NCBI GenBank assembly: GCA_965243555.1
Contig: OZ251575.1
Span: forward strand, 2,785,639-2,849,638
DNA: 64,000 bases
Direction: 5' to 3'
DNA from: Spirochaetia bacterium
GTDB lineage: Bacteria; Spirochaetota; Spirochaetia; SZUA-6; Bin103
Under the pieces are notes generated by a model. That model made no database searches, had not been told where the DNA came from, and worked only from the letters and a program-made list of their open reading frames with translations. Below are positions 6,780 through 20,169 of the stretch, piece by piece (position 1 is the stretch's first letter; every line of letters starts with the position of its first letter). Both the position numbers and the translations under genes were made by a program.

Positions 6780-8311
6780 GCGACGTGTACCTCACGTTTG
6801 CCGGAGTCTTGGTCGGGATCGGTTTCCGGTTCGGGATCGGCGGCCGCCGCCGGGGCGCGGCCATCCGCCGCCGGGCGGGGCATGGCGGGCGCGTCCGGGA
6901 ATGGGCCGGGCGGTTTGCCGGGCCCGCCTCCCGGCCCGCCGCCCCGCCCCGCGCCGCCCGCGGGCAGGCCGGCGAAGGTGCGCCGCAGCAGCAGGTACCC
7001 GATCCCGAACGCGACCAGATTGGCCGTGACGATCGCCATCCACACGCCGGGAGCGGCGCCGGCTCCGGCGCGGCCGCCGCCCGTGGCCAGCAGCGCGCCG
7101 CCCACCAGGATGGCCACCCGTATCGCGGAAATGGCGAAGCCGCGCCACGACTTGCCCAGTGCCTGCAGCGAGCTGACCACCACGAACAGCGCGGCCACCA
7201 CGCCGTAGGTGAGCGGCACCGTCGCCAGGTAGGAAAGCGTGTACCCCGCCACCTCGGCGTCGTCGGGGGCGAACGCTCCCACGATCACCCCGCGCATCAC
7301 CAGCGCGCCGACGCCCACCAGCGAGCCGAGGACGAAACCGAACAGCAGCCCGGTGCGAAACGCCGCGTGGGCGCGGTCCGGGCGCTGGCCGCCGAGATTC
7401 TGGCCAATCAGCGCCAGCGCGGCCACCCCGAAACCGATGGCCGGCAGGAACGAGAAGAACTCGATGCGCAGGCCGATGGCGAGCCCGGTGACCCCCGCTT
7501 CCAGGAACGCCAGCGCCACCACGGCGTTGAGCGCCGCCAGCGCCGCGGGGTTGAGCAAGTTGGTCAGGGCCGCCGGAAAGCCGATGGCCAACACCTTCCG
7601 CACCGACTGCAACCGGAACACGAGGTTCCGAAAGCGGAAGTTCACCAGCATGTTGCGCTGGTGGAGCAGGGTGATGCCCGCGGTCACCAGCAGTATCTGC
7701 GAAATCACGGTGGCGATGGCGGCGCCGCGCACGCCGAACGCGGGAATCCCGAAGCCGCCGAAGATCAGCAGCGGGTCGAGGGCCGCGTTGATGGTGGTGG
7801 AGATGGCGAACAGCCAGGTGACCGTGGTGTTGTCGCCCTGCGAGTTGAAGCCGAAGATCACGGCGAAGAACACGAACATGAGCACCGAACCGCCGGCGAC
7901 GATGGTGAAGTAGTCCACCGCCAGGGGCAGGATGTCGCCGGCGGCGCCGGTCAAGGTCAGGAGTTGGCGGCGCAGGGTGAGGCATAGCGTGGTAAAGATC
8001 GCGGCGGCGATGAGATTGAGCACGAATGATTGGCCGAGCACCCGTTCCGCCTCGTCGAGGTCGCGGCGGCCGATGCTCATGGCCATGACCACCCCGGACC
8101 CGACGGTGATGCCGATGGTGAGGGAGACCATCACGAACAGGGTGATTTGGGAGACGGTGACCGCGGCGATGGCGTTGGCCGAGACGCGGCTCACCCAGAA
8201 CGCGTCCACCAGTTGATACAGGGTCTGGAAGAAGATGGAGAGCATCACCGGCCAAGCCAGTGACCAGCTCAGTGCCGGGATTGATCCGGTGGTGAGGTTG
8301 CGTCCGCGCAC
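6776..8311 (-). CDS. MATE family multidrug efflux transporter (NorM-like)
   Basis: 511 aa with 12 predicted TM segments in two repeated halves typical of MatE. The C-terminal low-complexity Gly/Pro tail overlaps the Eis-like gene start. Confidence 0.88.
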   Translation of the reverse strand: MRGRNLTTGSIPALSWSLAWPVMLSIFFQTLYQLVDAFWVSRVSANAIAAVTVSQITLFVMVSLTIGITVGSGVVMAMSIGRRDLDEAERVLGQSFVLNLIAAAIFTTLCLTLRRQLLTLTGAAGDILPLAVDYFTIVAGGSVLMFVFFAVIFGFNSQGDNTTVTWLFAISTTINAALDPLLIFGGFGIPAFGVRGAAIATVISQILLVTAGITLLHQRNMLVNFRFRNLVFRLQSVRKVLAIGFPAALTNLLNPAALAALNAVVALAFLEAGVTGLAIGLRIEFFSFLPAIGFGVAALALIGQNLGGQRPDRAHAAFRTGLLFGFVLGSLVGVGALVMRGVIVGAFAPDDAEVAGYTLSYLATVPLTYGVVAALFVVVSSLQALGKSWRGFAISAIRVAILVGGALLATGGGRAGAGAAPGVWMAIVTANLVAFGIGYLLLRRTFAGLPAGGAGRGGGPGGGPGKPPGPFPDAPAMPRPAADGRAPAAAADPEPETDPDQDSGKREVHVA

Positions 8312-8434
8312 GGCCGGCGTAACCTACTACCGATTACGCCGGCAAGCAACGAACCCGCACCCCCACCTGCTCGCCGCTCCCCCAACCGGCCCAACCCGGC
8401 CCACCCAAGTCCAACCGGGGACTTGGCGCCGGCT

Positions 8435-8545
8435 TACGGGCGGTGCGGCGCCGGCTCCCACCACGAACGCGGGCTCACGGGCGGTGCGGCGCCGGCCCCC
8501 ACCACGAACGCCGGATACGGGCGGGTGCCGGCCCCACCGCCGGCT
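8435..8545. repeat. 41-bp tandem direct repeat, about 2.7 copies (unit 'tyacgggcggtgcggcgccggcyc ccaccacgaacgcsgg')
   Basis: Seen directly: units at 8435-8475, 8476-8516 and a partial unit at 8517-8545. It lies in the intergenic region upstream of the MATE/Eis operon (minus strand) and downstream of the DUF4202-like gene. Confidence 0.8.
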
Positions 8546-8566: not shown

Positions 8567-9160
8567 TCACCCGGACGCCGGCTGGTTGAACGTGCCGGCT
8601 ACCGCGCTCAGGCGTTGCGCCGCGCCACGCGCGGCGGGGGACATCTTGCGCCAAGTCCTGGTGAGGATGGAGGTCACCTTTTCCGGCGGGTGCTTGGCGG
8701 CGAACGCCGTGAGGTAGCTGTCCAGAAACACTAGGCAGGCGGCGTCTTCCAGCGCCTGCACGTCGCTGTCCTGGGTGGCTACGGCCAGCCCTTCCTTGCG
8801 CAGCAGGGCCTCCACGGCCGCCACCGCGGCGGAGTCGTAGCCCGCCTCCCGCATGAGCTGCGCCGTCCGCCGCGCGTGGTGGCCGGCCGCCGCGGTGCGC
8901 CAGCGCAGGTAACCGCGGCGCCCCTCCGGAAACCGCCCGCGCGGTATCGCCCAACGCTCCAGGTGCTGCGCGCAAACCGCGATGCGCAGGGTCTCGGAGG
9001 CACCGGGCCGCAACCGCTCCAGCCAAGCGCTCATGCGCCGCGCGTAGAGCAACTCCTTGGGATATTCGACGCCCCCGTCCGTCTCGGAATTGGGATCCGC
9101 GCGATTGGCGGCGTCGATCAACCGTAACACCCGTTCCAACCGCCCGCCCGGTTCGCCCAT
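8567..9160 (-). CDS. Conserved hypothetical protein (DUF4202-like)
   Basis: 197 aa. Motif 'CAQHLERWAIPRGRFPEGRRGYLRWR' resembles the conserved core of DUF4202 proteins, recalled from memory only. Confidence 0.5.
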   Translation of the reverse strand: MGEPGGRLERVLRLIDAANRADPNSETDGGVEYPKELLYARRMSAWLERLRPGASETLRIAVCAQHLERWAIPRGRFPEGRRGYLRWRTAAAGHHARRTAQLMREAGYDSAAVAAVEALLRKEGLAVATQDSDVQALEDAACLVFLDSYLTAFAAKHPPEKVTSILTRTWRKMSPAARGAAQRLSAVAGTFNQPASG

Positions 9161-9210: not shown

Positions 9211-9472
9211 GGCGGGTGCGAACCTCTGAACGGCACTAAGGCCCCTTCCATGCCCATCATCCAAGGCAGCGTGCCGGGTCGGATCAAGTCACCGGCGGGC
9301 GGCTCCGAGCCGCGCATGGCGGTGGCGGTAGCGGTGATGGGCGGCGCACAGCAGCCGCAGATTGTCGGGCTCGGCGCTGCCGCCGAGCGCATACGGCACC
9401 ACGTGATCTATTTCCAGCAGATGCCGGGAGCCGCACCGGCGCCCACTGCCCCGGTCCGCGTAGCTGCAGCAG
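9211..9472. repeat. Segmental duplication R1, copy 1 (about 90% identical to 16067-16307)
   Basis: By-eye alignment: this stretch (HNH gene 3' end plus 78 bp downstream) recurs at 16067-16307 with scattered substitutions and a 6-bp indel. Confidence 0.8.
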
Positions 9473-10857
9473 CCCCGGTCGCGCTCCCACACCTGCCGCC
9501 TGACCGCCGCCGGAATAGCCCGGCTGCGGACGCGTGGCTGTGGCGGCGCAGTCGCTGGCGTAGCGAGTCTGCCGGTCCGATGCGCCGCGGGCTGCGAGCC
9601 GCCTCCTGCCTTCGGCGCCGAAGTGGCGATTCCGGCGGCTGCCGCGTGCCGGTCCGCTGCCTGAACCCTCGATGGCGAAGTCGCGGCGCCTGCCGGCATC
9701 TCGGTCCGCGGCGCCGCCGCAGCCTCTTTCGGTGCCGAAGTCTCCGCCGTGAACTCCGCGGTCCGGGTGGCCACCGCCGGCCGCTTCGCAACCGTAACGC
9801 GGCGCTGGCCGGCGTCCGCCGGCACTTTCGGCGCCGAAGTCGCGGCGCCTGTCGGCATGCCGGTCTGCGGCGCCGCCGCGGCGTCCGGCCCGGCCGCTGT
9901 TTTCGGCGCCGAAGTTTGGCCGGCAACGTCGGGAGTCCGGCGGCTGCGGCCCCGCCTACGCGGCGGCCGCGACGGGTCGTGGCGGTCCAGCGCTTCCCGT
10001 ACCACCCGCCCCAGGAGCTGCCCCAACGTCATCTGCGGATCGACGTGGGACAGCAGCCCCTTGAGTTGCTCCAGTCCGACCTGGCAGTCGTCGTCGATCA
10101 CCGCCTTGAGCTCCCAGCGCCCGGCTCCCAGCGGCCGCATCCGGTCCGTCGCCCGCGCCAGATCGGGATCGACCTTGGCCAGCATCTCCTTTACCTGCCG
10201 CGTGCTCTTGCCGGCGGCCTGCGCCACCAGCGCCTCCCGCTCCGCCACGTCCAGCATCGGTGCTACCGGCTGTTCCGCGGCGTCGGGTTCCGCCGCGCGC
10301 ACCGGTGTATCCGGCACCAAGCCGCTGAGCGCACCCGCCGGCCCGGCCGCGCGCGCCGCTACGTCCGGCGCCGACGCGCCGGGCGCTACCGCCGCCCGAG
10401 CGCCAGGCTCCATGACCGACGCGGCCGACCCGGCATCGGCATCCGTCCCGCGCCCGCCACCGGCCTGCGTGTCCGTGTCGGGGGTGGTCGAGCGGCGCGC
10501 CTTGCGCTCCTGCTGCTCAAAGGCACGCTGCAACTGCGCCGCCGCGGCCAGCGTCAGCGTGCCATCCAACAGCCGCCCCCGCGCCCCGTTCACTTCCTCG
10601 CACAGCCGCATCGCCTTGAGCCGCCGCCAAGCCGCGCCAGTGCTGTAGCCCGGTTCCCGCATGGTGTAATCGAACATGCTGGAGAATCCCAGGGTGAGAT
10701 ACAGACAGCGCCGCTCAACTTCGCGCAGGTGATCGATGACCACGCCTTGGACGTAGTGTTCGATGGCGGAGAGTTCCTTGACCCGCTGAAGCAGACGTTG
10801 GTCGGAAAGGGCGGCAACGGTGGTTGTGATGGGCTTGTCATTAGAGGTCTTATTCAC
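9289..10857 (-). CDS. HNH endonuclease-domain protein with DUF222-like N-terminal region (REP13E12-like selfish element)
   Basis: 522 aa. C-terminal HNH motif 'CCSYADRGSGRRCGSRHLLEIDHVVPYALGGSAEPDNLRLLCAAHH'. The central Ala/Pro-rich linker carries in-frame repeats ('ATSAPK...'). Confidence 0.8.
   Translation of the reverse strand: MNKTSNDKPITTTVAALSDQRLLQRVKELSAIEHYVQGVVIDHLREVERRCLYLTLGFSSMFDYTMREPGYSTGAAWRRLKAMRLCEEVNGARGRLLDGTLTLAAAAQLQRAFEQQERKARRSTTPDTDTQAGGGRGTDADAGSAASVMEPGARAAVAPGASAPDVAARAAGPAGALSGLVPDTPVRAAEPDAAEQPVAPMLDVAEREALVAQAAGKSTRQVKEMLAKVDPDLARATDRMRPLGAGRWELKAVIDDDCQVGLEQLKGLLSHVDPQMTLGQLLGRVVREALDRHDPSRPPRRRGRSRRTPDVAGQTSAPKTAAGPDAAAAPQTGMPTGAATSAPKVPADAGQRRVTVAKRPAVATRTAEFTAETSAPKEAAAAPRTEMPAGAATSPSRVQAADRHAAAAGIATSAPKAGGGSQPAAHRTGRLATPATAPPQPRVRSRAIPAAVRRQVWERDRGCCSYADRGSGRRCGSRHLLEIDHVVPYALGGSAEPDNLRLLCAAHHRYRHRHARLGAARR
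9611..9915. repeat. Intragenic repeat array within the HNH gene: palindrome TTCGGCGCCGAAGT (4 copies) embedded in about 50-bp imperfect direct repeats
   Basis: Palindrome copies at 9611-9624, 9728-9741 (variant), 9827-9840 and 9902-9915. Blocks 9672-9722 and 9832-9882 are about 88% identical and encode the repeated 'AATSAPK/AAAP.T.MP.GA' peptide. Confidence 0.75.
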
Positions 10858-11399
10858 AGGTCAAGTATAAGCATAGAAAATACTTGAGTCAACTGTTCCG
10901 GCTGCTTTTTTTGGACCACGGAGTAGCACGCGCGGGGGACCGGGAAGCAGGTTAAAGGCAAGGTGGAGCGGGCCCGCCAACCGCCGAGCGCCCTTGCTAA
11001 AGAAACGGACCGGCGGGCCTATGTCCGACTTTCGGAGATGGCAACCTGCCCCGCGAGCTGCCGGACAAGGTCTCGCGGCACCGCGCCGGGAACCACCGAC
11101 CGGCAGTTGGCGCTGCCACAGGCCGCGGCCCAACGCGCGGCCCCGCCAAGCCGGCGTCTTCAAGGCGCAACGGGGCAGGTTCGGCACCCCCGGCCGCGGC
11201 CTTGCGCGTAACGGCTCCCGGCTCCCCGCGGGCGGCGGCGGCTGCTGCCGTGCACGCTCGACCGGCGGCGGCTCCCCGGCCGCGGCCGCCGGCTTCCCCG
11301 GCGCGCTCCCCGGACCGCGGCGGCTGGCAAGCTGCGGCGGGTCATTTCCCGTTGGCGCGTTCGCCTTCGTTCAAGGGGGTGAGATGTCCATGATGTGAC

Positions 11400-12830
11400 G
11401 TGTGTGTGGGTTGTGCGTATTGTATTGTGAGGTATAGTCCGAAGTTGTGGACGGGATGAAAAGAGCGCATCCTCCCAAAGAACGATTCAACCACGAATCA
11501 GGAGGAATACGCTCGTGGAGAACAATACCCCCAGGGCCGCAGAGGAACAAGGTCCTGGTACCATTCTGGAAGAGATCATTCGCCGCGGGGCGCGGCAGAT
11601 GCTGGCGGTAGCGCTGGAGGCCGAGGTGGACGAGTTCCTGGCTCGTCACGCTGACCGGCGGGATCAGCACGGCCACCGGCTGGCGGTCCGCAACGGCCAC
11701 ATGCCGGAGCGCTCGTTCGTCACCGGCATCGGACCGATCCCGATCCGCCAGCCGCGGGTCGATGACCGCCCGCTCGCCGAGGAGGGAGAGTCGAGGTTCA
11801 GCAGCGCGATCCTGCCCCGCTACGCGCGGCGGGCGCCGAGTGTGGACAACCTGATACCGACTCTGTACCTGAAGGGCGTGTCCAGCGGGGACTTCTCGGA
11901 GGCGCTGGCGGCGATCCTGGGAGAGCAGGCTTCGGGGCTGAGCGCCAGCAGCGTGGTGCGGCTGAAGAAGGTATGGGAAGAGGAGTACGAGAAGTGGACG
12001 CAGCGCGATCTGAGCGGCAAGCGGTACGTGTACTTCTGGGCCGACGGTCTGCACGTGAACGTACGGCTGGAAGAGGAACGCAGTTGCATCCTGGTGATCA
12101 TGGGCGCCGATCAGGAGGGGCGCAAGGAACTGGTGGCGGTGAGCGACGGCTACCGGGAGAGCAAGACCTCGTGGCGGGAGCTGCTGTTGGACCTGCGGCG
12201 GCGGGGGCTGCGGGAAGGACCGCGGCTGGCGACGGCGGACGGCGCGCTGGGATTCTGGGCGGCGCTCCGGGAGGTGTATCCGGAAGCGCAGGAACAGACC
12301 TGCTGGTTCCACAAGGCCGGCAACGTGCTGGACAAGATGCCGCAGTCGGTGCAGGGGCGGGCGAAGACGATGATCCGCGAGATGTGGCAGGCGCCGTCGC
12401 TGGAGCATGCCACCAGCGCCTATGACCACTTCTGCACCGCCTGGGAGCCGAAGTACCCGAAGGCGGTCGCCTGCCTGCGCAAGGATGTAGGCTCGCTGTT
12501 CAGCTTCTACGGATTCCCGGCCGCGCACTGGACGCATCTGCGGACCAGCAACCCGATTGAGTCGACCTACGCGACAGTGCGGCTGCGGACGAAGCGGACG
12601 AAGGGCTGCGGGTCGCGGATGGCGACGCTGACGATGGTCTGGAAGCTGGCGCTGGAAGCGCAGCGCGGATGGCGCCGGCTGATGGGCTTCAAGTTCATCC
12701 CCCTGGTGATGGAGGGGCGTGAATTCGTAGACGGCGAGCTGACGGAGGCAGCCGCCTAAGAGAGACCGAAAGGCAACGGGATGATGCGCTCGCTGATTCT
12801 CAATCCACAAGACTTGACAATATCTCTTGT
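11400..12830 (+). mobile_element. IS256-family insertion sequence (boundaries approximate)
   Basis: Contains the transposase ORF. AT-rich 'TATTGTATTGT' motifs lie at 11417-11428 and, inverted, at 13355-13379. Termini could not be defined precisely by eye. Confidence 0.4.
11515..12759 (+). CDS. IS256 family (mutator-type) transposase
   Basis: 414 aa. Typical IS256/MULE transposase sequence ('...YFWADGLHVNVR...ILVIMGADQEGRKELVAV...CWFHKAGNVL...') with the DDE region. An RBS-like 'aggagg' lies upstream. Confidence 0.9.
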   Translation: MENNTPRAAEEQGPGTILEEIIRRGARQMLAVALEAEVDEFLARHADRRDQHGHRLAVRNGHMPERSFVTGIGPIPIRQPRVDDRPLAEEGESRFSSAILPRYARRAPSVDNLIPTLYLKGVSSGDFSEALAAILGEQASGLSASSVVRLKKVWEEEYEKWTQRDLSGKRYVYFWADGLHVNVRLEEERSCILVIMGADQEGRKELVAVSDGYRESKTSWRELLLDLRRRGLREGPRLATADGALGFWAALREVYPEAQEQTCWFHKAGNVLDKMPQSVQGRAKTMIREMWQAPSLEHATSAYDHFCTAWEPKYPKAVACLRKDVGSLFSFYGFPAAHWTHLRTSNPIESTYATVRLRTKRTKGCGSRMATLTMVWKLALEAQRGWRRLMGFKFIPLVMEGREFVDGELTEAAA

Positions 12831-13187
12831 ATTGTTGGTGAGCTTTACAAAGCTAAACTGCAATACTTGTATCTGACCTTGTCCATTACTCCATCCTCCA
12901 GTTAGGATGTAATGATCTTTGTGATTAGATTCTGACCAATCGTAAATTGAATCAGGATAGGTAGTCGGATTACTGCCATCAACGCTTAACGTTAGGCGGT
13001 TACTAGTGATTGACCAAGCGGCACCGTCGCCCTGCCAATTTCCTACAAGCCAGGTTGGCACGGTAACGCTTCCGCTTCCGCTTCCGGCGGCTTCTTCGCA
13101 ACCGATCAATACCACGCTGGCAAGCGCGGCGGCTGCTACCATCGCAGCGGTACTTAGTAGTGATTTCATCGGTTCGCATTCTATCAT
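12756..13187 (-). CDS. Putative lipoprotein (low-GC cargo gene)
   Basis: 143 aa. Signal peptide plus lipobox 'VVLIGC' at the N-terminus. Local GC is about 40% versus about 70% background. The gene overlaps the transposase stop. Confidence 0.5.
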   Translation of the reverse strand: MIECEPMKSLLSTAAMVAAAALASVVLIGCEEAAGSGSGSVTVPTWLVGNWQGDGAAWSITSNRLTLSVDGSNPTTYPDSIYDWSESNHKDHYILTGGWSNGQGQIQVLQFSFVKLTNNTRDIVKSCGLRISERIIPLPFGLS

Positions 13188-13347
13188 CTACCGGGCGGCG
13201 GCTGGCAAGCTGCACGGTCGGTCGATCAACCGCTCCCCGGCGGACGTGGTAGCGGCCGTTGCCAGGCGGACCGGGCGGCGGCTGCTGCCGTGCACGCTCC
13301 CCGGCTCCCCGGCGCGCTCCCCGGGACCGGTCGATCTAAAGTGTACA

Positions 13348-13677
13348 TTACATACAATACAAACAATACAATACAATCTCCCCGCTGGCGCCGGCCGGAG
13401 CTACCGGCGCCGGCGGCTCCCCGGCCGCGGTCTCTACCACCCGCGTGGCGATGCCCTCGCGGCGCAGGTCGGTCTGCATGCGGCGTCCGTTGGCCCCGCC
13501 CAGATAGGCCAGCAGCGTCGCCGGCACTCCCAGAGCGGTGAGCGCGCGCGCCACGTTGACGCCCTTGCCGGCCGCCACGCGCCGCACTTCCCGCACCCGG
13601 TTCACGGCGCCCGCGGTCACGAGCTCAAACCGGTAGATGAGCTGCCACGCGCAGTTCTGCCCACACACCAGGATCAT
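13348..13677 (-). pseudogene. PfkB-family carbohydrate kinase, 5' fragment (truncated after about 85 native codons by AT-rich IS-associated sequence)
   Basis: N-terminus '[51 protein letters not shown]' is ribokinase/PfkB-like. The reading frame runs into the AT-rich repeat at 13345-13380 and stops. The missing 3' part is present only in the second copy (16308-16950). Confidence 0.6.
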
Positions 13678-13893
13678 GCTTCCTTCCCCTCCTGCCGCCC
13701 GCCGCCCCTGCTCCCTTGCGCCGCGAGCGGCCGCGCCCGTACCCTACGGCAGCCTTCACCCATGAAATACCTCGGCGCTCACGTATCCACCGCCGGCGGC
13801 CTGCATACCGCGCCGCCGCGGGCGCAGGCGCTCGGCGCCACGGCGTTCGCCATCTTCACCCGCAACCAGCGGCGCTGGGCCGCCAAGCCCCTC
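13455..13893. repeat. Segmental duplication R2, copy 1 (about 93% identical to 16728-17172)
   Basis: By-eye alignment of the PfkB 5' region, the pfkB-nfo intergenic region and the first ~44 codons of nfo. Confidence 0.8.
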
Positions 13894-14634
13894 ACTGCGC
13901 AGGAGGCCGACTCCTTCCGCGAGCAGTGCGCGGCGGCCGGCATCCCGCTTCGGCGGGTTCTGCCGCACGCCGGCTACCTGATCAACCTGGGCGCGCCCGA
14001 CGCCGCGGTCGTGCGCAAGTCGCAGGCGGCCTTCCTGGACGAGTTCGACCGCTGCCGCCGGCTCGGTCTGCGCGGCCTGAACCTCCACCCCGGCAGCCAC
14101 CTCGGCAAGATGGAGGACGCCGCGTGCATGGACCAGATCGCCGCGTATCTCAATCGGGCCATCGCCGAGATTCCCGACGTGACCGTGGTCTACGAGTGCA
14201 CCGCCGGCCAGGGCAGCCACCTGGGTCATACCTTCGCGCAGCTCGCCGGCCTGATCGACCGCATCGACGACAAGTCACGGGTCGGCGTGTGCCTGGACAC
14301 CTGCCACCTGCACGCCGCCGGCTACGATCTTACCACCGCCGCCGCCTACGAGCGCACCATGCGCGAGTTCGAGCAGGTGGTGGGCCTGCGCTACCTCGCC
14401 GGCGCGCATCTCAACGACTCCAAGACAGCACTCGGCAGCCGGGTGGACCGCCACGCCAGCCTCGGCAAAGGCACGATGGGTTGGGAACCGTTCCGCCTGC
14501 TGATGAACGACCCCCGCTTCGACGAAATCCCCCTCATCACCGAAACCGTCGACCCCGATCTGTGGGCCGAAGAACTAACCCAACTCCGCGCTTTGATCGG
14601 CCGCACCGAGGCCTGCCCCCTCCCGCCCGCCTAG
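13762..14634 (+). CDS. nfo: Endonuclease IV (AP endonuclease family 2)
   Basis: 290 aa from the ATG at 13762; the 542-aa track ORF is an upstream read-through artefact. Motifs '[13 protein letters not shown]', 'HPGSHLG', 'VCLDTCHLHAAGYD', 'AHLNDSK'. Confidence 0.9.
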   Translation: MKYLGAHVSTAGGLHTAPPRAQALGATAFAIFTRNQRRWAAKPLTAQEADSFREQCAAAGIPLRRVLPHAGYLINLGAPDAAVVRKSQAAFLDEFDRCRRLGLRGLNLHPGSHLGKMEDAACMDQIAAYLNRAIAEIPDVTVVYECTAGQGSHLGHTFAQLAGLIDRIDDKSRVGVCLDTCHLHAAGYDLTTAAAYERTMREFEQVVGLRYLAGAHLNDSKTALGSRVDRHASLGKGTMGWEPFRLLMNDPRFDEIPLITETVDPDLWAEELTQLRALIGRTEACPLPPA

Positions 14635-15048
14635 AACCCTATCCACTCACGGGTATCGGCGGAGATAGAATTCTGGGGCGACAGGTCTTCGCCAACGTCG
14701 CTTCTATCAATTTCTGCTCCCTGCGGCTCTCCGGCCAGCCGGTGATATTCGCGTGATTTATGGGGTTGTTATCTATGGCTACCTGCAGGCCGATCCTGTG
14801 TATCGCGCACTCCGTAATGCAGGCCCAACCGTACAATCTCGGCTTTCCGCGCCGCCGTGCAGCTTTTACCCCTCGCGCCCGGACTTCCGAGTCCGTCGTC
14901 TCACCTGCAACGAACTCCACGGACAGCCGTAGATTGTTTGGGGGAGAAAAGAGCTTGGGGTGAATCCGGTTTGATGCCGGTCTGACTTCGTTGCTATGGA
15001 ACGCAAATCTGGCGAAGTAGTCGTCCATCTACGCAGAGTTCCGACATG

Positions 15049-15561
15049 CTATTCCATACAGAGGTCGCGCAGGCAACACTTCATTGTCTCGGGAATACGC
15101 CCGCTCCATGGTTCACATCCGCTGTACTCTCGGCCATCGTCCAGCATGGCGGTCAGCACAACGTCGTCTCCGTCGGGACCTATGCTGAGGGATACGGTCC
15201 CGCCGGCAACAAACCACGTCAGGTCGACTTCGCCCTTCGGCGTCGCACAAACATCCGGCCTGGGAATACCCAAGGGAAGGTCATCCGTGAGCGAGGCGGC
15301 AGCAGCCACGGCCGCCACACCGGGAGGGGCATCGGCACCGTCGCCACTACGATCGATGTCACCTTCGTCCACCGCCAGCGCCTTTATCTCCCGCTTTACG
15401 TCTCGCAACCACTCGTCACCAAGAACACTCATCTCGGTCGCCGTCTCGGTGTCCGCAAACGAAAGTATCCTCAGCGCCAAGGCAGGCATCTTGGGCAAAG
15501 TGAACGGCTGTTCCGGCATGGCACTCGGTTCCGGTTCAAAGGCAATTGCCGCGCTACTCAT
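15049..15561 (-). CDS. Hypothetical acidic protein (170 aa), low-GC cassette gene 2
   Basis: Clean ORF with a 4/8-bp overlap to the upstream 144-aa ORF, in a roughly 52-55% GC island. No recognisable domain. Confidence 0.45.
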   Translation of the reverse strand: MSSAAIAFEPEPSAMPEQPFTLPKMPALALRILSFADTETATEMSVLGDEWLRDVKREIKALAVDEGDIDRSGDGADAPPGVAAVAAAASLTDDLPLGIPRPDVCATPKGEVDLTWFVAGGTVSLSIGPDGDDVVLTAMLDDGREYSGCEPWSGRIPETMKCCLRDLCME

Positions 15562-15988
15562 AGGTAACCCCTAGCTCTTTTCTCTTCAGTAGTCGACCGT
15601 CGATGACAAAGTCAATAAGGTAAGTGCCTTCCGAATAGGTGACGGAAGATGGTATGTCAAATCGCAGAAAGCCGGAATCTCCTTCTTTCGCGCCATCAGT
15701 TGTAGACCGGGTAATCAGCTTCCCCTCAATAGAATAGGCCGCCTCCTCACTATTGTCATTTTTTGCTACCGTGAGGCGGACCGTGTACTCCCTATTGTAC
15801 TCCACACCGGTCAGTTCGACGAGGATCCCCCAGGGAGGGCCGTTGCGACGATCACCCGTGGATGATTCACGGCTACGGAGTGTGAGGGCGGAAAATATGC
15901 CGACCGCGCCATACCGATCATCGCTTTCATGAATTATGCGATCAGCAACTATGAAGTTGATTATGTCCAGCGCCATATCACCCACCAC
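15554..15988 (-). CDS. Hypothetical protein (144 aa), low-GC cassette gene 1
   Basis: Clean ORF, predicted all-beta, in the low-GC island. No recognisable domain. Confidence 0.45.
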   Translation of the reverse strand: MVGDMALDIINFIVADRIIHESDDRYGAVGIFSALTLRSRESSTGDRRNGPPWGILVELTGVEYNREYTVRLTVAKNDNSEEAAYSIEGKLITRSTTDGAKEGDSGFLRFDIPSSVTYSEGTYLIDFVIDGRLLKRKELGVTYE

Positions 15989-16066
15989 ACCGTATCGTCG
16001 TATTCACGTCGTGTCAAGCCTCCCTAGCGTACCAGGTTCCTCCACCGTAGTCAAGCAACTCACGCC

Positions 16067-16307
16067 TGCGGGTGCGAACGTCTGAAACGGCACGCATCAT
16101 CCAAGTCAGCGCGCCGGGCCGGATCAAGTCACCGGCGCACGGCCCCGAGCCGCGCATGGCGGTAGCGGTGATGGGCGGCGCACAGCAGCCGGAGATTGTC
16201 GGGCTCGGCGCTGGCCTCCATGCGCATACGGCACGACGTGATCGATTTCCAGCAGATTCCGGGAGCCGCACCGGCGCCCGCTGCCCCGGTCCACGTAGCT
16301 GCAGCAG
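16067..16307. repeat. Segmental duplication R1, copy 2
   Basis: See R1 copy 1. Confidence 0.8.
16124..16307 (-). pseudogene. HNH endonuclease 3' remnant (frameshifted copy of the 9289-9480 region)
   Basis: Translations '...CCSYVDRGSGRRCGSRNLLEIDHVVPYAHGG' and, in another frame, 'SAEPDNLRLLCAAHHRYRHARLGAVRR*' show the HNH C-terminus split across frames. Confidence 0.65.
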
Positions 16308-16950
16308 AACAGCACCCACTGCACTCCGTGCCGGTCGCGCAGGCGGCGGCAGAAGGCCGCCCGATCCGCGGCCAACTCGGCCAATTCAGCGCGGTTGATC
16401 TTGAGGATTTCGGGCGCGGCCGCCAGGGCTGCGCGGGCGTGGTCGCGGTAGGCGTCGAGCAGCGTGGGCACCCCACGCCGGTGCGCCAGCCGCACCATCT
16501 CGGCGTATACCTCGGGATGCGCGCCGCCGATCGCGGTGCCGGCAATCACCACCGCCGCGGCGTTCCCCAGCAACTCCTCGTAGGCGGCCGCGAAGCGTTC
16601 CTGCTCAGCGCCGCTCGCTGCCGCGGCCGGCTCCACCAGTTCCGTTACCTGCCGCGCCGGCCCCGCCGCCGGCCCCTCCAGCAGCGTGACGCAGGTGCGG
16701 GTGTCGGCCGCCGTCTCCACCACACGCGCGCGATGCCCTCGCGGCGCAGGTCGGTCTGCATGCGGCGTCCGTTGGCCCCGCCCAGATAGGCCAGCAGCGG
16801 CGCCGGCACTCCCAGCGCGGTGAGCGCGCGCGCCACGTTGACTCCCTTGCCGGCCGCCGCGCGCCGCACTTCCCGCACCCGGTTCACGGCGCCCGCGGTC
16901 ACGCGCTCGAATCGGTAGATGAGCTGCCACGCGCAATTCTGCCTGCACAC
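16308..16950 (-). pseudogene. PfkB-family carbohydrate kinase, second copy with a 1-nt deletion (frameshift near 16740) and the 3' end fused to the HNH remnant
   Basis: The N-terminal 74 residues match copy 1. At 'atcgcgcgcgtgtggtgg' versus copy 1 'atcgccacgcgggtggta' one base is missing and the frame shifts. The downstream frame continues with the PfkB core ('...AAVVIAGTAIGGAHPEVYAEMVRLAHRRGVPTLLDAY...') and reads into HNH sequence without a stop. Confidence 0.65.
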
Positions 16951-17172
16951 CAGGATTATGCTGCATGCCCCACCTGCCCGCGCCTCCCTTGCGCCGCGAC
17001 CGGCCGCGCCCGTACCCTACGGCTGCCTTCGCCCATGAAATACCTCGGCGCTCACGTATCCACCGCCGGCGGCCTGCACACCGCGCCGCCGCGGGCACAG
17101 GCGCTCGGCGCCACGGCGTTCGCCATCTTTACCCGCAACCAGCGGCGCTGGGCCGCCAAGCCCCTCACCGAG
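16728..17172. repeat. Segmental duplication R2, copy 2
   Basis: See R2 copy 1. Confidence 0.8.
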
Positions 17173-17192
17173 CAGGAGGCAGAATCATGGAC
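17035..17192 (+). pseudogene. Endonuclease IV 5' fragment (first ~44 codons of nfo, then divergent sequence and a stop)
   Basis: '[45 protein letters not shown]' is identical to the nfo N-terminus, then 'EQEAESWT*'. The vsr start codon lies inside the divergent tail. Confidence 0.65.
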
Positions 17193-17624
17193 ATAGTGGA
17201 CGCGCAAACGCGCAGTAGGATGATGTCCGGAATCAAAGGTCGCGACACGGTACCCGAGGTCGTCGTCCGGCGAGTCGCGCACCGCATGGGGTTCCGCTTT
17301 CGTTTGTATCGTAAAGACTTGCCAGGGAGGCCCGATCTAGTGTTCCCAAGGTACCGGGCCGTTGTCTTCGTTCATGGATGTTTCTGGCATAGACACCAAG
17401 GTTGCCGGTACGCCTACACTCCCCGGACCAGAGTGCGGTTTTGGATGGGAAAGTTCAGCGACAACGTCGCGCGGGACCGCCGAACAGAGCAAGCTCTGGT
17501 CACGCTCGGCTGGCGGATCCTGGTCATCTGGGAGTGCGAGACGCGCAACGAGGCAGTCGTGCGGGAGCGTCTTCGAGAGTACCTCCCCCAGACAGACTAC
17601 GGGACAAGCGAACCAGCAACGTGA
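17187..17624 (+). CDS. vsr: Very-short-patch-repair (Vsr) endonuclease
   Basis: 145 aa. '[54 protein letters not shown]...RFW..K...NV.RDRR...L...[11 protein letters not shown]' matches Vsr along its full length. RBS 'aggagg' lies 7 nt upstream. The catalytic Asp of the E. coli 'FVDGCFWH' motif is His here ('FVHGCFWH'). Confidence 0.9.
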
Positions 17625-18574
17625 TCACGGCATGCGACATCTTCTGCGGCGCCGGCGGTAGCAGCGCCGGAGCGCGGGCAGCAGGCATCACGATCGTAGC
17701 CGGCATCGACATGTGCCCGACCGCGACGGCAACCTTCGCTGCGAACTTTCCCGAAGCCCATGTCGTTACGAGTCGGCTTGAAGATGTTGACACCGACGAA
17801 TTCAGCATCCGGGTGGGAAAGATTGACCTTCTCCTGGCATCGCCGGAGTGCCGGAACCACACCTGCGCCAGAGGCGCCGCGCCGCGAGACGAGTCCAGCC
17901 GTGCCACGGCGATGCAGGTCGTCGAGTATGCCCGTGCGCTCAGCCCGCGATGGGTCATTCTCGAGAATGTCATCTACATGCGCCCGTGGTCGCGGTACGG
18001 CGAGCTGAAGCGAAAGCTGAACGACCTTGGGTACCTCCTTGAAGAGCGCACGCTCGACGCTTCAGACTTCGGCGTGGCGCAAGCGCGGCGGCGGTTGTTT
18101 CTCATCGGCGATCGTGAACGGTCGCCCAACGTGACGCTTCACGGACGCCCCGGCAGGCGCAAGCCCGCCAAATCCATTCTCGATGCCACCGGAACCTGGA
18201 AGACCACGCCCCTGTTCAAGCCGAAACGCGCGCCCGCTACGATCGAGCGGGCCAAGCGCGGATTCGCCGCTCTCGGCGGGCGGTCCAGCTTCCTGCTGGT
18301 CTACTACGGCAGCGACGGCAGCGGGGGATGGCAGCCGCTTGACCGTCCCCTGCGCACCATCACCACGCTGGACCGATTCGCACTCGTGGAGCACAACGGC
18401 AAGACGTGGACCATCCGTATGTTGCAGGTGCCCGAGCTCAGGCGCGCCATGGGGTTCGGCGATCGCTTCGAACTGCCCGCCGGCACGCGCCGCGACCGAA
18501 TCCGGCTTCTTGGCAACGGTGTCTGCCCTCCGGTGATGGAAGCGGTGGTCCGATCATTGATTTCCAAGGGATAA
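17621..18574 (+). CDS. DNA (cytosine-5)-methyltransferase
   Basis: GTG start overlapping the vsr stop (GTGA). Motif I 'DIFCGAGG', motif IV region 'LLASPEC' (atypical PEC instead of PCQ), motif VI 'ILENVIYM', motif VIII 'QARRRLFLIG', motif IX/X 'LRRAMGFGDRFELPA...LLGNGVCPPVMEAV'. Confidence 0.88.
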   Translation: MITACDIFCGAGGSSAGARAAGITIVAGIDMCPTATATFAANFPEAHVVTSRLEDVDTDEFSIRVGKIDLLLASPECRNHTCARGAAPRDESSRATAMQVVEYARALSPRWVILENVIYMRPWSRYGELKRKLNDLGYLLEERTLDASDFGVAQARRRLFLIGDRERSPNVTLHGRPGRRKPAKSILDATGTWKTTPLFKPKRAPATIERAKRGFAALGGRSSFLLVYYGSDGSGGWQPLDRPLRTITTLDRFALVEHNGKTWTIRMLQVPELRRAMGFGDRFELPAGTRRDRIRLLGNGVCPPVMEAVVRSLISKG

Positions 18575-18589
18575 CGGCGAACCGCCGAA

Positions 18590-19171
18590 CTACGGCTCAA
18601 TGGTGAGAGCGCGTGGATCGATGCTGACCCGATCCGGGAATACCACGAGGTTGGGCAGCACCGGGTTGCGGGCAGAAGGCGTGAGGAACCCCTGGCAACT
18701 GGTCCGGTGGTGGTATAGCGCTTCGCCGAGTTGCTGGGTCGGTGCCGGGCCGCTTGATGCTACCGCCGATGCAACCGTACGACTATCGTAGTCGAACCAG
18801 TCGCCGGTGAGCTCCTGGACAGTCGTCGTGACCGTAGAACGTCCACCACAGATTCGGAAGTCCGCAACCCGATCCAGACGCACGGTGACTCCGACCACGG
18901 ACCAACCGCACGGAACCCGCCGAACGGGTCCACGTCGGGGATGTCCCAGCAGGCAGCCTACTTCAAGCAACGCACTAAACCGGTCCGGCGCCAGATACAG
19001 CAGAGGATAGCGGCCATCTTCTCGTTTGAATCTGGTAGTACTGCTCAACGTGTGCTGCCATGCCAGCGGATACCGGGCATACTTGCGAGGAACGGCCCGA
19101 TACCACTGCGTCTTCCCGTATCCGCCTCCCGGCAACGCGCGGAGTGGCAGCTTTCCGACAGCGCAAGTCAT
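18590..19171 (-). CDS. RES-domain toxin (MbcT/Res-like NAD+-degrading toxin family)
   Basis: 193 aa. 'QWYRAV...TTRFKREDGRYPLLYLAPDRFSALLEV' parallels the RES core of MbcT 'YRY...GEGARRFGGRWNPPLLFPAIYLADSAQACMVEV' (R, E and S positions conserved). The start codon overlaps the upstream gene's stop (ATGA). Confidence 0.8.
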   Translation of the reverse strand: MTCAVGKLPLRALPGGGYGKTQWYRAVPRKYARYPLAWQHTLSSTTRFKREDGRYPLLYLAPDRFSALLEVGCLLGHPRRGPVRRVPCGWSVVGVTVRLDRVADFRICGGRSTVTTTVQELTGDWFDYDSRTVASAVASSGPAPTQQLGEALYHHRTSCQGFLTPSARNPVLPNLVVFPDRVSIDPRALTIEP

Positions 19172-20169
19172 GAGAAAGACCCATCATCGAGCGAATCGAG
19201 GAAACTCGAAATTTTCCGCAGCCGCGTTGCGTCGACTTCCCGGGCACGAAAAAACCGTCCGGGAGTATCATCTTCGAACATTGGGTTCGGAACGTCCAGC
19301 CACTGCTCGAAACTCTGCAGACGTCGTACGAATGGATCGAAACCCGGCATTTCCCGGAATCGTATTTCCAGACGACGCCGTACGATTTCCCGCACGGCCA
19401 GGGGGTGGCTGAGCGCCCTGGAAGTAGCGATCGCGTTCACGAGACGGTCGATAAGAAACAGCATGCCTACGTCGCCGCTGTCCAGCATTTGTCGCGGCGT
19501 CTGTCCGAAGTCGGTCAGATCGGCGTCCATCCAGTCACTCAGGGACGAGCTGCGCGACGGAAACCCAGGCGGCACGTCGTCAGTGCACGGCGTTTCGGCC
19601 GCGGCGAACAACCGGCGCAGGCGCCCGATGATTTCCTCCCGAGTGGGACGGTAGGGCTCCACCAACTCCGGATCGGCTTCCGGTTCGAAGAGAGCGGCAG
19701 CTTCGGGGAGCGTCGCAATCCGGGCGGCTATGTCCTCCATCAGCGCCGCTTCATCCCGGATGCCGCCGGCTTCGTCCAGATAGTCCGCCTTGGGCAGCGG
19801 CACAACGGTGGACGGCCTCGCCACCCCGTGATGGAGACGATCGGTAAGAAACTTGTAGAGTCCCGGAGCCTGATCCTGATACAGAGTCCATAACAGGATC
19901 AGATACGGCAGGGCCGGCTTGATCCTCCCTTCCAGCAATGCCCCGATCGTGCTGAAGTCGGTGCTATGATCACCGGCGATCGCCCCGCCACCAAGATGGA
20001 GATCGGCAAAGATCACTCGCACGTCCGGGCACGGTTCAATGTTCGCCATGTCCTCCGTAAAGGGAATCTGAAGGCAAGGCACGCCGCGGCGATTGAGACT
20101 GTTGGCCAAGGCCGCCAGATGATCCGGCTCGTCGTCAATGGCTATGACTTGCGGGGATCTCAGCATCAC
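19168..20169 (-). CDS. Response-regulator receiver (REC) domain fused to an MbcA/ParS/Xre-antitoxin-type (DUF2384-like) C-terminal domain
   Basis: 333 aa. N-terminus 'VIAIDDEPD...VRVIFADLHLGGG...LILLWT...YKFL' carries the REC acidic pocket, the phospho-acceptor Asp, and the conserved T and K. C-terminus '...TPRQMLDSG...QWLDVPNPMFEDDTPGRF...ISSFLDSLDDGSF' aligns with the MbcA toxin-binding motif 'VWMFSPNRLLEHRKPADL...ALIDAMAEGVF'. No HTH is evident. ATGA overlaps on both sides. Confidence 0.75.
   Translation of the reverse strand: MMLRSPQVIAIDDEPDHLAALANSLNRRGVPCLQIPFTEDMANIEPCPDVRVIFADLHLGGGAIAGDHSTDFSTIGALLEGRIKPALPYLILLWTLYQDQAPGLYKFLTDRLHHGVARPSTVVPLPKADYLDEAGGIRDEAALMEDIAARIATLPEAAALFEPEADPELVEPYRPTREEIIGRLRRLFAAAETPCTDDVPPGFPSRSSSLSDWMDADLTDFGQTPRQMLDSGDVGMLFLIDRLVNAIATSRALSHPLAVREIVRRRLEIRFREMPGFDPFVRRLQSFEQWLDVPNPMFEDDTPGRFFRAREVDATRLRKISSFLDSLDDGSFS

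Follow-up and report, generated by a model that had tools for sequence, protein, structure and literature searches.

The locus discussed here lies in a window of 64 kb (the whole stretch of DNA analysed, to which all positions refer) and runs from a DUF4202 gene, syntenic by blastn across all relatives, through an HNH endonuclease gene, a broken pfkB and an intact nfo to a small cassette, e, and then through a second and decayed set of HNH, pfkB and nfo sequences to a five-gene module, V, and a glyoxalase-family gene (Table 1). Searches with Pfam, NCBIfam and PADLOC agree with the gene content given in a preliminary description of this DNA, namely DUF4202, a 522-aa HNH protein (motif at aa 474-512), an IS256 transposase, a low-GC lipoprotein ORF, PfkB fragments, nfo, Vsr and Dcm.

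Table 1. Features of the locus, with window positions, strand and basis of assignment.
Feature	Position	Strand	Basis or remark
DUF4202 gene, native left flank, single copy	8567-9160	-	Pfam PF13875, E=7.5e-66
R1 copy 1: last 61 HNH codons and 77 nt downstream	9212-9472		self-blastn, global alignment
HNH endonuclease gene, intact, 522 aa	9289-10857	-	Pfam PF01844
pfkB copy 1, 3' remnant (about aa 279-353), in-frame stop	11025-11215	-	tblastn with L002 PfkB
Window-specific 2.2 kb insert: GC-rich repeats, IS256, low-GC lipoprotein ORF	11216-13421		
IS256-family element	11429-12826	+	transposase 11515-12759; NCBIfam NF033543, 298 bits
Lipoprotein-like ORF, low GC (~48%)	12756-13187	-	GC by codon position 0.49/0.50/0.46
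R2 copy 1: pfkB codons 1-85 (13423-13677, - strand), pfkB/nfo divergent intergenic region (13678-13761), nfo codons 1-48	13422-13907		
nfo (endonuclease IV), intact, 290 aa	13762-14634	+	Pfam PF01261
Cassette e, three-gene operon and 77-nt right flank	14635-16067	-	
e gene, 129 aa, ADP-ribosyltransferase-fold, toxin-like	15028-14639	-	
e gene, 170 aa	15561-15049	-	
e gene, 140 aa, DUF6941-like	15976-15554	-	
R1 copy 2: HNH tail pseudogene (aa 463-522, frameshifted) and 3' flank	16068-16307	-	self-blastn, tblastn, global alignment
pfkB copy 2 pseudogene, aa 1-225	16308-16959	-	tblastn, alignments
R2 copy 2: pfkB 5' end, intergenic region, nfo codons 1-48	16705-17180		
nfo stub ORF, 53 codons	17035-17196	+	in-frame internal deletion of second nfo with V-type tail
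Module V, discrete, five genes (Vsr/Dcm/RES-Xre/GHKL)	17187-22349		Pfam, PADLOC, NCBIfam
vsr	17187-17624	+	
dcm	17621-18574	+	GTG start overlaps vsr stop
RES toxin	18590-19171	-	
Xre-type antitoxin	19168-20169	-	
GHKL ATPase	20166-22349	-	weakly related to BbrUII/HgiDII restriction enzymes
Host-gene 5' stub, ~26 codons	22350-22429	-	direct reading, comparison with L002 and L161
Glyoxalase-family gene, native right flank	22430-22822	-	Pfam PF00903

Self-blastn of the window returned exactly two direct matches, the repeat pairs R1 and R2 already reported, and no further copies of either within the 64 kb; R1 pairs 9255-9472 with 16095-16307 (90.0% over 219 columns, E=3e-74) and R2 pairs 13422-13907 with 16705-17180 (92.4% over 486 columns, E=0), identities above the roughly 80% below which the preliminary description would have given up the duplication. 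A global alignment pushes R1 leftward across a 13-16 nt indel, to 9212/16068, matching the left limits proposed before (9211/16067), and the R1 copy 1 end lies 51 nt upstream of the DUF4202 start.

Both pfkB copies are broken at this locus. The first had been described as cut after about 85 codons, which is borne out for its 5' part (about aa 1-82/85), but a decayed 3' remnant had been overlooked, in which tblastn matches aa 279-328 to 11025-11174 and which shares 92% identity with the 3' end of pfkB in a close relative, L161, where the gene is intact. The 2.2 kb insert takes the place of aa ~85-287, where L161 has 608 nt of intact pfkB, and it is a late event confined to the window, since it is not found in L161, whose copy 1 pfkB is intact. 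Within it, the IS256 element has imperfect terminal inverted repeats (11429-11476 and 12778-12826) and a 9-bp target duplication, TTGTATTGT, at 11420-11428 and 12827-12835, and its insertion changed the 3' end of the lipoprotein-like ORF, as an IS-less reconstruction indicates; family searches with that ORF gave no match. IS256-mediated rearrangement was considered as a cause of the duplication and rejected, given that no IS copies or ends lie at the duplication junctions, that the single IS256, with its own target duplication, sits inside copy 1, and that L161 is duplicated without it.

In the second set, pfkB retains its 5' two-thirds, as tblastn with an intact relative's PfkB demonstrates, and not the 3' two-thirds as first described; its start codon has changed from ATG to ATA, the 1-nt deletion noted before reappears in alignments as a frameshift near 16735, and at aa 225 it is joined to the HNH tail, which is also frameshifted (if the source is a long-read MAG, sequencing errors could account for these frameshifts). 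The two sets of fragments, said to be complementary, are so only in part, with the pfkB 5' end held by both copies and aa 226-278 by neither. The nfo stub does meet vsr, its stop overlapping the vsr ATG (ATGGACATAG), but it comprises 48 native codons and four tail codons (ESWT-stop) rather than the 44 codons first counted.

Cassette e fills the exact gap between the two copies and holds three genes, where two had been described. It carries neither terminal repeats nor a tRNA target and no gene for replication, an integrase or a transposase, and domain, PADLOC and NCBIfam searches gave no MTase or REase match in it; it is portable, with homologues in other contexts, linear and chromosomal-looking. 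Module V is likewise free of integrase and transposase genes in domain searches, recurs with unchanged limits in L170 and also in L168, where the context is unrelated, and, with pN/pS of 0.08-0.34 against L161 and a synonymous divergence equal to that of core genes, is under purifying selection. To its right, the stub that precedes the GHKL start and overlaps the glyoxalase stop is what is left of a host gene whose intact form in L002 lies between nfo and the glyoxalase gene; in L001 and L165-L167 synteny places the glyoxalase gene directly after nfo.

Comparison with related genomes

The closest comparison is with L161, an independent metagenome assembly whose 12.7 kb scaffold, without Ns and ~95% identical to the window, shows the tandem order of the window, down to identical junctions at N1|e, e|a2 and stub|vsr (N1 being the window nfo with the native tail). 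Parts of the arrangement are also present in L162 and L163, and the sequence of the e|HNH-tail junction (16067/16068) is identical in the window, L161 and L163. The single-copy loci that had been predicted in relatives do exist (L001-L003, L165-L167), and in these genomes, as in L170, nfo occurs once and pfkB no more than once. Their orders differ: DUF4202-pfkB-nfo in L002, DUF4202-nfo-glyoxalase in L165-L167, and DUF4202-pfkB-nfo-V in L170, where the nfo stop overlaps the vsr start as in the window. HNH is not present in L001, L002, L165-L167 or L170 and has its L003 homologue downstream of nfo; it is a variable and probably mobile gene in this clade. The proposed ancestral order DUF4202-HNH-pfkB-nfo therefore applies to the immediate ancestor but not to the wider clade, to which HNH, and in some relatives pfkB, is not ancestral, judging from L002, L003, L165-L167 and L170.

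The tails of nfo separate the two copies. The intact window gene ends in the native-type tail (QLRALIGRTEACPLPPA and a stop) shared with L161, L001, L002 and L167, while full-length nfo with the V-type tail (LQ[TA]S..SWT and a stop, overlapping the vsr ATG) is present in L170 and in the second L163 copy, and the stubs of the window and L161 also end in ESWT and a stop. Since L170, with one pfkB and one nfo, has V with the identical overlap, the nfo-V junction is older than the duplication, which contradicts the earlier suggestion that vsr and dcm arrived together with it; module V thus predates the duplication and was not its cause.

Copy 2 has decayed differently in each lineage. The window lost HNH aa 1-462 together with PfkB aa 226 to the end, and nfo codons 49-~286 in frame; L161 lost most of HNH via a 10-nt direct repeat, GCTGCAGCAG, and PfkB aa 136 to the end; and L163 has other internal deletions, one via 8-nt microhomology. 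Because the three lineages retain different, overlapping parts (for PfkB, aa 136-225 survive in the window; for HNH, 56 nt of the 5' end survive in L161; and for nfo, codons 55-279 survive in L163), the ancestral copy 2 must have been essentially complete, and the proposal that HNH-pfkB-nfo was duplicated as a whole, in direct orientation, and later decayed is upheld by these pieces; the R1 and R2 pairs are thus parts of one originally continuous unit, with the L163 evidence weaker. L163 is a 4.2 kb short-read scaffold in which a 2364-nt unit occurs at 1.36 copies, with two nfo parts identical to the junction, and may in part be a graph-loop artefact; it is also the sole support for copy 2 having held nfo codons 55-279. 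From the window, L161 and L163, set beside the single-copy L001-L003, L165-L167 and L170, the ancestor reconstructed with high confidence, and largely shown by sequence comparison, is [HNH-pfkB-nfo]-e-[HNH-pfkB-nfo]-V.

In a four-sequence comparison of R2, 8-10 sites unite the two copies 1 with each other and likewise the two copies 2, whereas 1 and 0 sites back the alternatives, and because the sites group by copy the duplication is older than the split of the window and L161. Copy 1 evolved under purifying selection, the changes on its terminal branches falling 1/3/16 by codon position (p=2.5e-5); those on the copy 2 branches fall 4/1/6. The intact nfo has a pN/pS of 0.11 against L161. The two copies differ by 21 synonymous and 11 non-synonymous changes (4/6/22 by codon position), with a synonymous divergence of 0.134 compared with 0.11-0.14 for window-L161 orthologues. 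The copy-2 remnants of the window and L161 differ by only 3.7%, against that 0.11-0.14 for the synonymous sites of neighbouring genes, and therefore either constraint or a later inter-lineage recombination tract has to be allowed for, and the history is no simple tree.

Discussion

The reading that I put forward, at a probability of roughly one half, is that a single, old tandem duplication left R1 and R2 behind, at a variable site immediately downstream of nfo. Its structural part is very probable: a unit T of ~3.7 kb, which started in the HNH tail and took in HNH, pfkB and nfo, would have stood twice in direct orientation in the ancestor shared by the window, L161 and L163, the first nfo with its native tail followed by e and the second with the V-type tail, its stop over the vsr start, followed by V, and the one novel junction, e|HNH-tail, would mark the duplication. 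The redundant copy 2 would then have lost different parts in each lineage, and the IS256-bearing insert would later have broken the copy 1 pfkB in the window only.

For the route I tentatively favour, at somewhat less than even odds, a tandem duplication that arose spontaneously and was then altered in one copy by allelic replacement. Here illegitimate unequal exchange in an e-type chromosome would have formed [T-e][T-e], and a V-type allele, such as the single copy of L170, would have taken the place of the distal nfo tail and of the second e through homologous recombination within nfo and the glyoxalase-side flank. The starting e-type chromosome is hypothetical, because none of the genomes found carries an e-only allele (T-e-glyoxalase). 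As for persistence, recombination at either repeat pair would remove the sole intact nfo, and R2 copy 2 probably provides the promoter and leader ORF of vsr-dcm; a consensus promoter scan of the intergenic region gave no match, a scan that says little in a 70% GC spirochaete. Both e, with its toxin-like gene, and V, with an R-M-like pair and a RES toxin, look addictive from their gene content, and therefore plain allelic replacement would be costly and cells with both alleles favoured. A bolder and doubtful version is that the locus is a natural record, preserved over a long time, of two addictive cassettes in competition for one chromosomal hot spot; if true, replacing either e or V would have been lethal and only a tandem-allele chromosome survived, its duplicated host DNA trimmed to a bidirectional promoter and a 53-codon nfo leader translationally coupled to vsr-dcm, with V a promoter-less, two-armed cassette that lives by fusion with two convergent host genes at their 3' ends.

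The preliminary description had instead offered, as an example, the single-crossover integration of a circular element sharing the segment. In such a Campbell-type model a circle carrying e and T would have entered a T-V chromosome by one homologous crossover, a single step that gives T-e-T-V and restores an nfo with its native tail. In its favour, the product geometry (an insert between two direct copies of the shared segment) is exact, the greater age of the nfo-V junction makes a V-bearing recipient plausible, and e is portable. I consider it unlikely: nothing found points to it specifically, e lacks the replication, recombinase and target features listed above, no circular or plasmid form of e and T was found in the databases searched (where absence is not proof), and forming the circle needs the same illegitimate e|HNH-tail joint plus a transfer step. 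It is improbable, too, that a linear V-type fragment (HNH tail through nfo and V to the glyoxalase side), anchored by homology on the glyoxalase side and joined illegitimately at its other end just to the right of e, added a donor T-V beside the resident T-e of an e-type recipient by homology-facilitated illegitimate recombination; this would fit one non-homologous junction (16067/16068), seen in the product, and one flank homologous in all relatives, and PMC5361080 proposes a like process for arrays of displaced effector/immunity modules, but with 3.7 kb of shared T a double homologous exchange should win by orders of magnitude (for rates, see PMC5361080 and PMC3240628).

That copy 2 is a diverged relative's flanking DNA, brought along by a moving V island, is largely refuted and very improbable. 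The mostly synonymous differences between the copies, taken alone, resemble selection in separate genomes, but that bias stems from the copy 1 branches, the divergence between the copies equals that between the window and L161, copy 2 is no nearer than copy 1 to L170 or L001, and V in L168 and L170 has clean gene-boundary ends without such flanks. An assembly artefact joining two strain haplotypes in tandem is hardly credible, for although the unit limits (9212-16067 and 16068-~22425) fit two alleles between shared flanks and the source is probably a metagenome-assembled genome, as its closest relatives are MAGs, L161 has the same order and junctions in another sample and assembly, L162 and L163 share parts of the arrangement, and the supposed haplotypes share no sequence at the e|HNH-tail junction.

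The locus is, then, a well-documented case of ordinary genome turnover at a site of defence-cassette gain and loss, and no new type of element. Since bacterial tandem duplications are usually short-lived, old ones with a readable history are rare, and three lineages together with single-copy relatives offer a stepwise view of one forming, locking in and decaying at a defence hot spot, of how mobility-gene-free cassettes come to adjoin one another, and of an R-M-type module wired into host operons by overlapping stop and start codons. Its use is as a worked example of duplication history, and as a caveat for annotation, where no intact pfkB copy exists at the locus and the 53-codon nfo ORF is a remnant.

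Several known systems bear comparison. Chromosomal R-M systems resist replacement by allelic DNA, according to PMC3874152 on the work of Handa 2001, and transformation with a lethal cassette yields merodiploids with an intact and an inactivated copy (Johnston et al. 2013, PMC3784515). Like these merodiploids (PMC3784515; Handa et al. 2001, as cited in PMC3874152), the window has a direct duplication with one copy intact and the other bearing an incoming or disrupted allele, where selection acts against the loss of an allele, either through an essential gene or through an addictive R-M system; unlike it, the laboratory duplications span 100-900 kb, have IS-derived repeat borders and are unstable, whereas that of the window measures about 5 kb, has a single illegitimate junction that lacks repeats and persisted to ~13% synonymous divergence while decaying. 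The insertions of R-M units with long target duplication (Nobusato 2000; Furuta 2010, PMC2853133) also place a mobility-gene-free cassette between direct repeats that are single-copy at the empty site (here T in L002 and L170), and an R-M-type module is present at this locus; the published repeats, however, are 46-423 bp and flank the R-M genes themselves, whereas here e, the flanked cassette, is no R-M unit, the repeat originally measured ~3.7 kb and V is located beyond both repeats. Insertions of that class have R and M genes in the flanked DNA, and e gave no match to either in the searches described above. Campbell integration of a non-replicating circle shares the order of segment, insert and segment but differs in that no replicon, recombinase or circular form of e was seen. 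Finally, in the T6SS effector/immunity displacement arrays (PMC5361080) and the rhs C-terminal displacement cited there, much as in the window, alternative downstream cassettes build up in tandem, each behind a partial copy of the conserved upstream gene, and one-sided homology has been proposed as the mechanism; the duplicated conserved part there lies in the toxin gene itself, whereas in the window it is housekeeping DNA (nfo, pfkB and HNH), with the full-length copy upstream of the older, V-linked one.

Repeats and gene content

Self-comparison of the 64 kb window found two pairs of direct repeats in the region, R1 and R2, whose left units are here called copy 1 and right units copy 2, and only short local repeats elsewhere; short tandem repeats lie at 8427-8532, 25183-25290 and 34604-34715, their units measuring 41, 39 and 52 nt and sharing 84-90% identity. 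The preliminary description had proposed a duplicated HNH-pfkB-nfo segment and required that the repeats be no less than about 80% identical, which both pairs satisfy, and its R1 coordinates are borne out by global alignment, which extends R1 across a short indel to 9212/16068; domain searches also confirmed its gene names. No tRNA gene or integrase-type attachment context was found in the window from 1 to 30 kb.

Repeats and genes of the duplicated region (window coordinates)
Feature	Coordinates	Strand or orientation	Identity or basis
R1	9255-9472 vs 16095-16307	direct	90.0% over 219 columns
R2	13422-13907 vs 16705-17180	direct	92.4% over 486 columns
MatE	6776-8311	-	domain search
DUF4202	8567-9160	-	domain search
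HNH protein, 522 aa	9289-10857	-	domain search
IS256 transposase	11515-12759	+	domain search
Low-GC lipoprotein-like ORF	12756-13187	-	
nfo	13762-14634	+	domain search
Three small ORFs (e)	14639-15988	-	
vsr	17187-17624	+	domain search
dcm	17621-18574	+	domain search
RES toxin	18590-19171	-	domain search
Xre-type antitoxin	19168-20169	-	domain search
GHKL ATPase, 727 aa, weak likeness to BbrUII/HgiDII restriction enzymes	20166-22349	-	
Glyoxalase-family gene	22430-22822	-	domain search

A tandem duplication holding two alleles

I read the locus, with a probability of about 0.9, as a tandem duplication, [T-e][T-V], of two hot-spot alleles with one illegitimate junction at 16067/16068, where T is a unit of about 3.7 kb (HNH-pfkB-nfo, nfo being the endonuclease IV gene), e is a three-gene cassette and V is the five-gene module vsr-dcm/RES-Xre-GHKL. 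This reading follows from the two old alternative 3' ends of nfo that the copies carry, a native tail with e and a V-type tail with V. The native tail, QLRAL[VI]GRTE.C, is present in copy 1 of the window and of L161 (a scaffold of a close relative) and in the relatives L001, L002 and L167, and the nfo stub of copy 2 ends in EQEAESWT and a stop in both the window and L161.

The V-type tail is seen complete in L170, a 5.4 Mb contig that matches the window at about 82-87% nucleotide identity and carries a single-copy locus, DUF4202-pfkB-nfo-vsr-dcm-RES-Xre-GHKL, followed by another restriction system and then glyoxalase; its nfo ends in QLRALQASDTGSWT and a stop overlapping the vsr ATG, and the same kind of ending (QLRALQTSNNESWT, stop) is seen in the second nfo of L163, a scaffold of 4.2 kb with 96-100% identity to the window. 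In the window, a 53-codon ORF (17035-17196) is made up of nfo codons 1-48, then ESWT and a stop that overlaps the vsr ATG (ATGGACATAG); vsr and dcm overlap as well, at the vsr stop and the dcm GTG. Since its tail is V-type, this stub arose from a V-type nfo by an in-frame internal deletion, and coincidence can be dismissed as the reason why it ends at the exact edge of V, the last codons of full nfo overlapping vsr in L170 and L163. V is therefore older than the duplication.

An assembly artefact, a worry raised at the outset, is ruled out for practical purposes by L161, which is 12.7 kb long, comes from another sample and is about 95% identical to the window over its full length. It has no Ns and no IS256, its order is intact pfkB (353 aa)-nfo-e-HNH tail-pfkB fragment-nfo stub-vsr-dcm-RES-Xre-GHKL-glyoxalase, and the junctions nfo-stop/e, e/HNH-tail and stub/vsr are identical to those of the window.

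Decay of the copies

Gene fragments were mapped by tblastn with the intact PfkB of L002 (329 aa) as query. Copy 1 retains aa 1-82 (13677 to 13432) and a degraded stretch of the 3' end, aa 279-328 (11174 to 11025), with an in-frame stop; copy 2 retains aa 1-76 and 75-225 in two frames (16959 to 16307), which is the 5' two-thirds of pfkB and not the 3' two-thirds first described. The copy 2 start codon is mutated to ATA, and the fragment is joined at aa 225 to HNH aa 463-522, this HNH tail also being frameshifted. In L161 the HNH tail is joined, through the 10-nt direct repeat GCTGCAGCAG, to 56 nt from the 5' end of HNH (equivalent to window 10785-10839), which are then joined to PfkB aa ~135, and L163 has further deletions (16272/16488 through GCCGCACC, and 16559/13926) while keeping nfo codons 55-279 directly 5' of vsr. 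As each lineage retains parts lost in the others, the ancestral copy 2 must have held HNH, pfkB and nfo essentially in full, with the caveat that some of L163 may be a graph-loop artefact.

In L001 (8947-9920) pfkB is split into two overlapping ORFs of 262 and 99 aa, either by a real frameshift or by a long-read indel error, which cautions against taking single-base frameshifts in these MAGs as biology. The short-read scaffold L163 (1-4232) contains a 2364-nt unit (pfkB piece, nfo codons 55 to end, e, HNH tail) 1.36 times, its two nfo parts being identical up to the junction, and this may be a real tandem amplification or a graph-loop artefact; in L163 there is also a chimeric nfo ORF of 292 aa (P0030), and V has an internal deletion.

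Relatives and the hot spot

Species-representative genomes scanned with Nfo gave three high-GC Spirochaetia MAGs, L001, L002 and L003 (90%, 84% and 81% Nfo amino acid identity), and closer relatives came from a search of a large protein database followed by comparison of contigs; a scan of metagenome_contigs returned no relative above 60% identity, and exact-match look-ups of window proteins found none in the collection queried. By synteny the native order is MatE-DUF4202-[variable]-pfkB-nfo-[variable]-glyoxalase. Intact pfkB directly adjoins DUF4202 in L002, three further relatives (L165-L167, Nfo ~90%) have DUF4202-nfo-glyoxalase without pfkB or HNH, and in L003 an oppositely oriented HNH homologue lies downstream of nfo. 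The varying side of nfo on which the HNH gene is found suggests that this gene is mobile too. Inside the HNH protein, Ala/Pro-rich repeats at 159 nt spacing differ in length between strains (window 9583-9950; L161 1-160; L003 10947-12824).

In L001 glyoxalase follows nfo by about 40 bp, and thus window 14635 to ~22425 is extra DNA relative to L001. The nfo/glyoxalase site is a defence-island hot spot. L170 (2730-9987) additionally encodes a Type ISP/MmeI-like enzyme of 1362 aa and a PLD/SNF2 helicase of 1054 aa in this gap, where L002 has one ordinary gene. The preliminary description expected single-copy relatives lacking vsr and dcm; L001, L002 and L165-L167 are indeed single-copy, but the absence of vsr/dcm fails in L170, where V stands behind a single nfo.

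The two cassettes

The DNA between the copies, e (14635-16067), comprises an operon of three genes and a further 77 nt. Homologues of this three-gene set occur beside a short-chain dehydrogenase and an AAA_15 ATPase (L171-L177) or with other flanks (L178-L180), so e is portable; its ends are essentially gene ends, and it lacks both terminal repeats and a mobility gene. The 77-nt right flank has no match beyond the window, L161 and L163. The three proteins gave nothing significant in Pfam, NCBIfam, PHROGs or PADLOC, gene 1 having a sub-threshold DUF6941 match, and the gene 3 family comprises 419 cluster representatives. Gene 3 itself has a confident predicted structure (pLDDT 96.9); a toxin role is a reasonable lead, not a result.

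V (17187-22349) recurs in L168 at 80% identity, bounded alike but flanked by unrelated genes, and a variant, GHKL-hypothetical-Vsr-Dcm, is carried by a conjugative Burkholderia plasmid (L181, B. glumae), so that V is a discrete module, one that lacks a recombinase. The V blocks span 10001-15172 in L168 and 10001-15221 in L170, GHKL homologues of ~70% identity occur across many metagenomes, and PADLOC assigned RES/Xre to no defence system. In the window both arms stand behind co-oriented host genes, with stop and start codons that overlap or nearly abut. One arm runs nfo stub, vsr, dcm, and the other runs glyoxalase, a host-gene stub of 26 codons (the gene is intact in L002), GHKL, Xre, RES; in L168 the arms have the same geometry directly behind co-oriented host genes. 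This arrangement suggests that V may be a promoter-less cassette read from host operons. A promoter/terminator consensus scan found nothing in the intergenic region, such a consensus saying little for a 70% GC spirochaete.

Age and selection

R2 was compared among four sequences, both copies from the window and L161, with outgroups. Sites grouping copy 1 with copy 1 and copy 2 with copy 2 number 8-10, against 1 and 0 for the alternative groupings, which places the duplication before the window/L161 split and makes gene conversion negligible. Changes on copy 1 terminal branches fall 1/3/16 by codon position (p=2.5e-5), showing purifying selection, and those on copy 2 fall 4/1/6, with no significant departure from even. 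A foreign, functional copy 2, inferred from synonymous bias, is rejected because the bias lies on the functional copy 1 branches, and the equality of paralogue and orthologue pS also stands against it. Synonymous divergence between copies is 0.134, and orthologue pS between the window and L161 is 0.106-0.144 (nfo, glyoxalase, MR_MLE, vsr, dcm, GHKL), so the copies were nearly identical at duplication, shortly before the lineages split. The V genes have pN/pS of 0.08-0.34 between window and L161 and on this measure are functional and as old as the split.

The copy 2 remnants differ between window and L161 by 3.7% (26/711 sites), where ~13% is expected from synonymous sites; these remnants (window 16068-17186, L161 3880-4770) are 3-4 times less diverged than their neighbours' synonymous sites (pS 0.11-0.14). 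Either constraint or a later inter-lineage recombination tract of ~1 kb is responsible, and the tract would also explain why stub/vsr is common to the window and L161, not L163.

Routes of origin and known parallels

Every candidate route needs one illegitimate joint plus homologous recombination. Tandem duplications are frequent, and e and V both look addictive, so that plain replacement would be counter-selected and a pre-existing duplication would let both alleles stay; for these reasons I tentatively favour a spontaneous tandem duplication, [T-e][T-e], in an e-type chromosome, after which a V-type allele would have homologously replaced the distal nfo tail and e through crossovers in nfo and the glyoxalase-side flank. 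Campbell integration of a circle of e+T, akin to the single crossover first proposed, shares the need for an illegitimate joint and appears unlikely, and homology-facilitated illegitimate recombination, with the same need, slightly more so. Duplication followed by replacement matches, by analogy, the resistance of chromosomal R-M systems to allelic replacement, as stated in a passage of PMC3874152 citing Handa 2001, and the merodiploids yielded by lethal-cassette transformation (PMC3784515). The arrangement would persist because the sole intact nfo would be lost if either R1 or R2 recombined between its copies; R2 copy 2 probably aids persistence too by supplying promoter and leader for vsr-dcm.

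Three published situations come closest. Laboratory merodiploids hold two alleles as this locus does. R-M units can show insertion with long target duplication (PMC2853133), but the flanked insert here is not an R-M unit and the repeat was ten times longer. The third is the displacement arrays of T6SS and rhs loci (PMC5361080), from which this locus differs in that the duplicated DNA is housekeeping. The locus thus adds a well-resolved case of processes already known and does not represent a new kind of element.

The insert in pfkB copy 1

The IS256 and lipoprotein ORF (11216-13421) form a late, window-specific insert, as shown by the lack of IS256 in L161. IS256 is bounded by imperfect terminal inverted repeats at 11429-11476 and 12778-12826 and entered by simple insertion, duplicating 9 bp of target (TTGTATTGT); this and its absence from L161 reject it as driver of the duplication. 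The lipoprotein ORF had no significant match in Pfam, NCBIfam, PHROGs or PADLOC. The insert (11216-13431) is nested: IS256 lies within the 3' end of this 48% GC ORF, and the ORF has inverted repeats of the ATTGTATTGT type on either side (about 11417-11428 and 13352-13376). GC-rich repeats, ~50-100 nt long, occur three times, at 11221-11340, 13190-13330 and 13377-13431.
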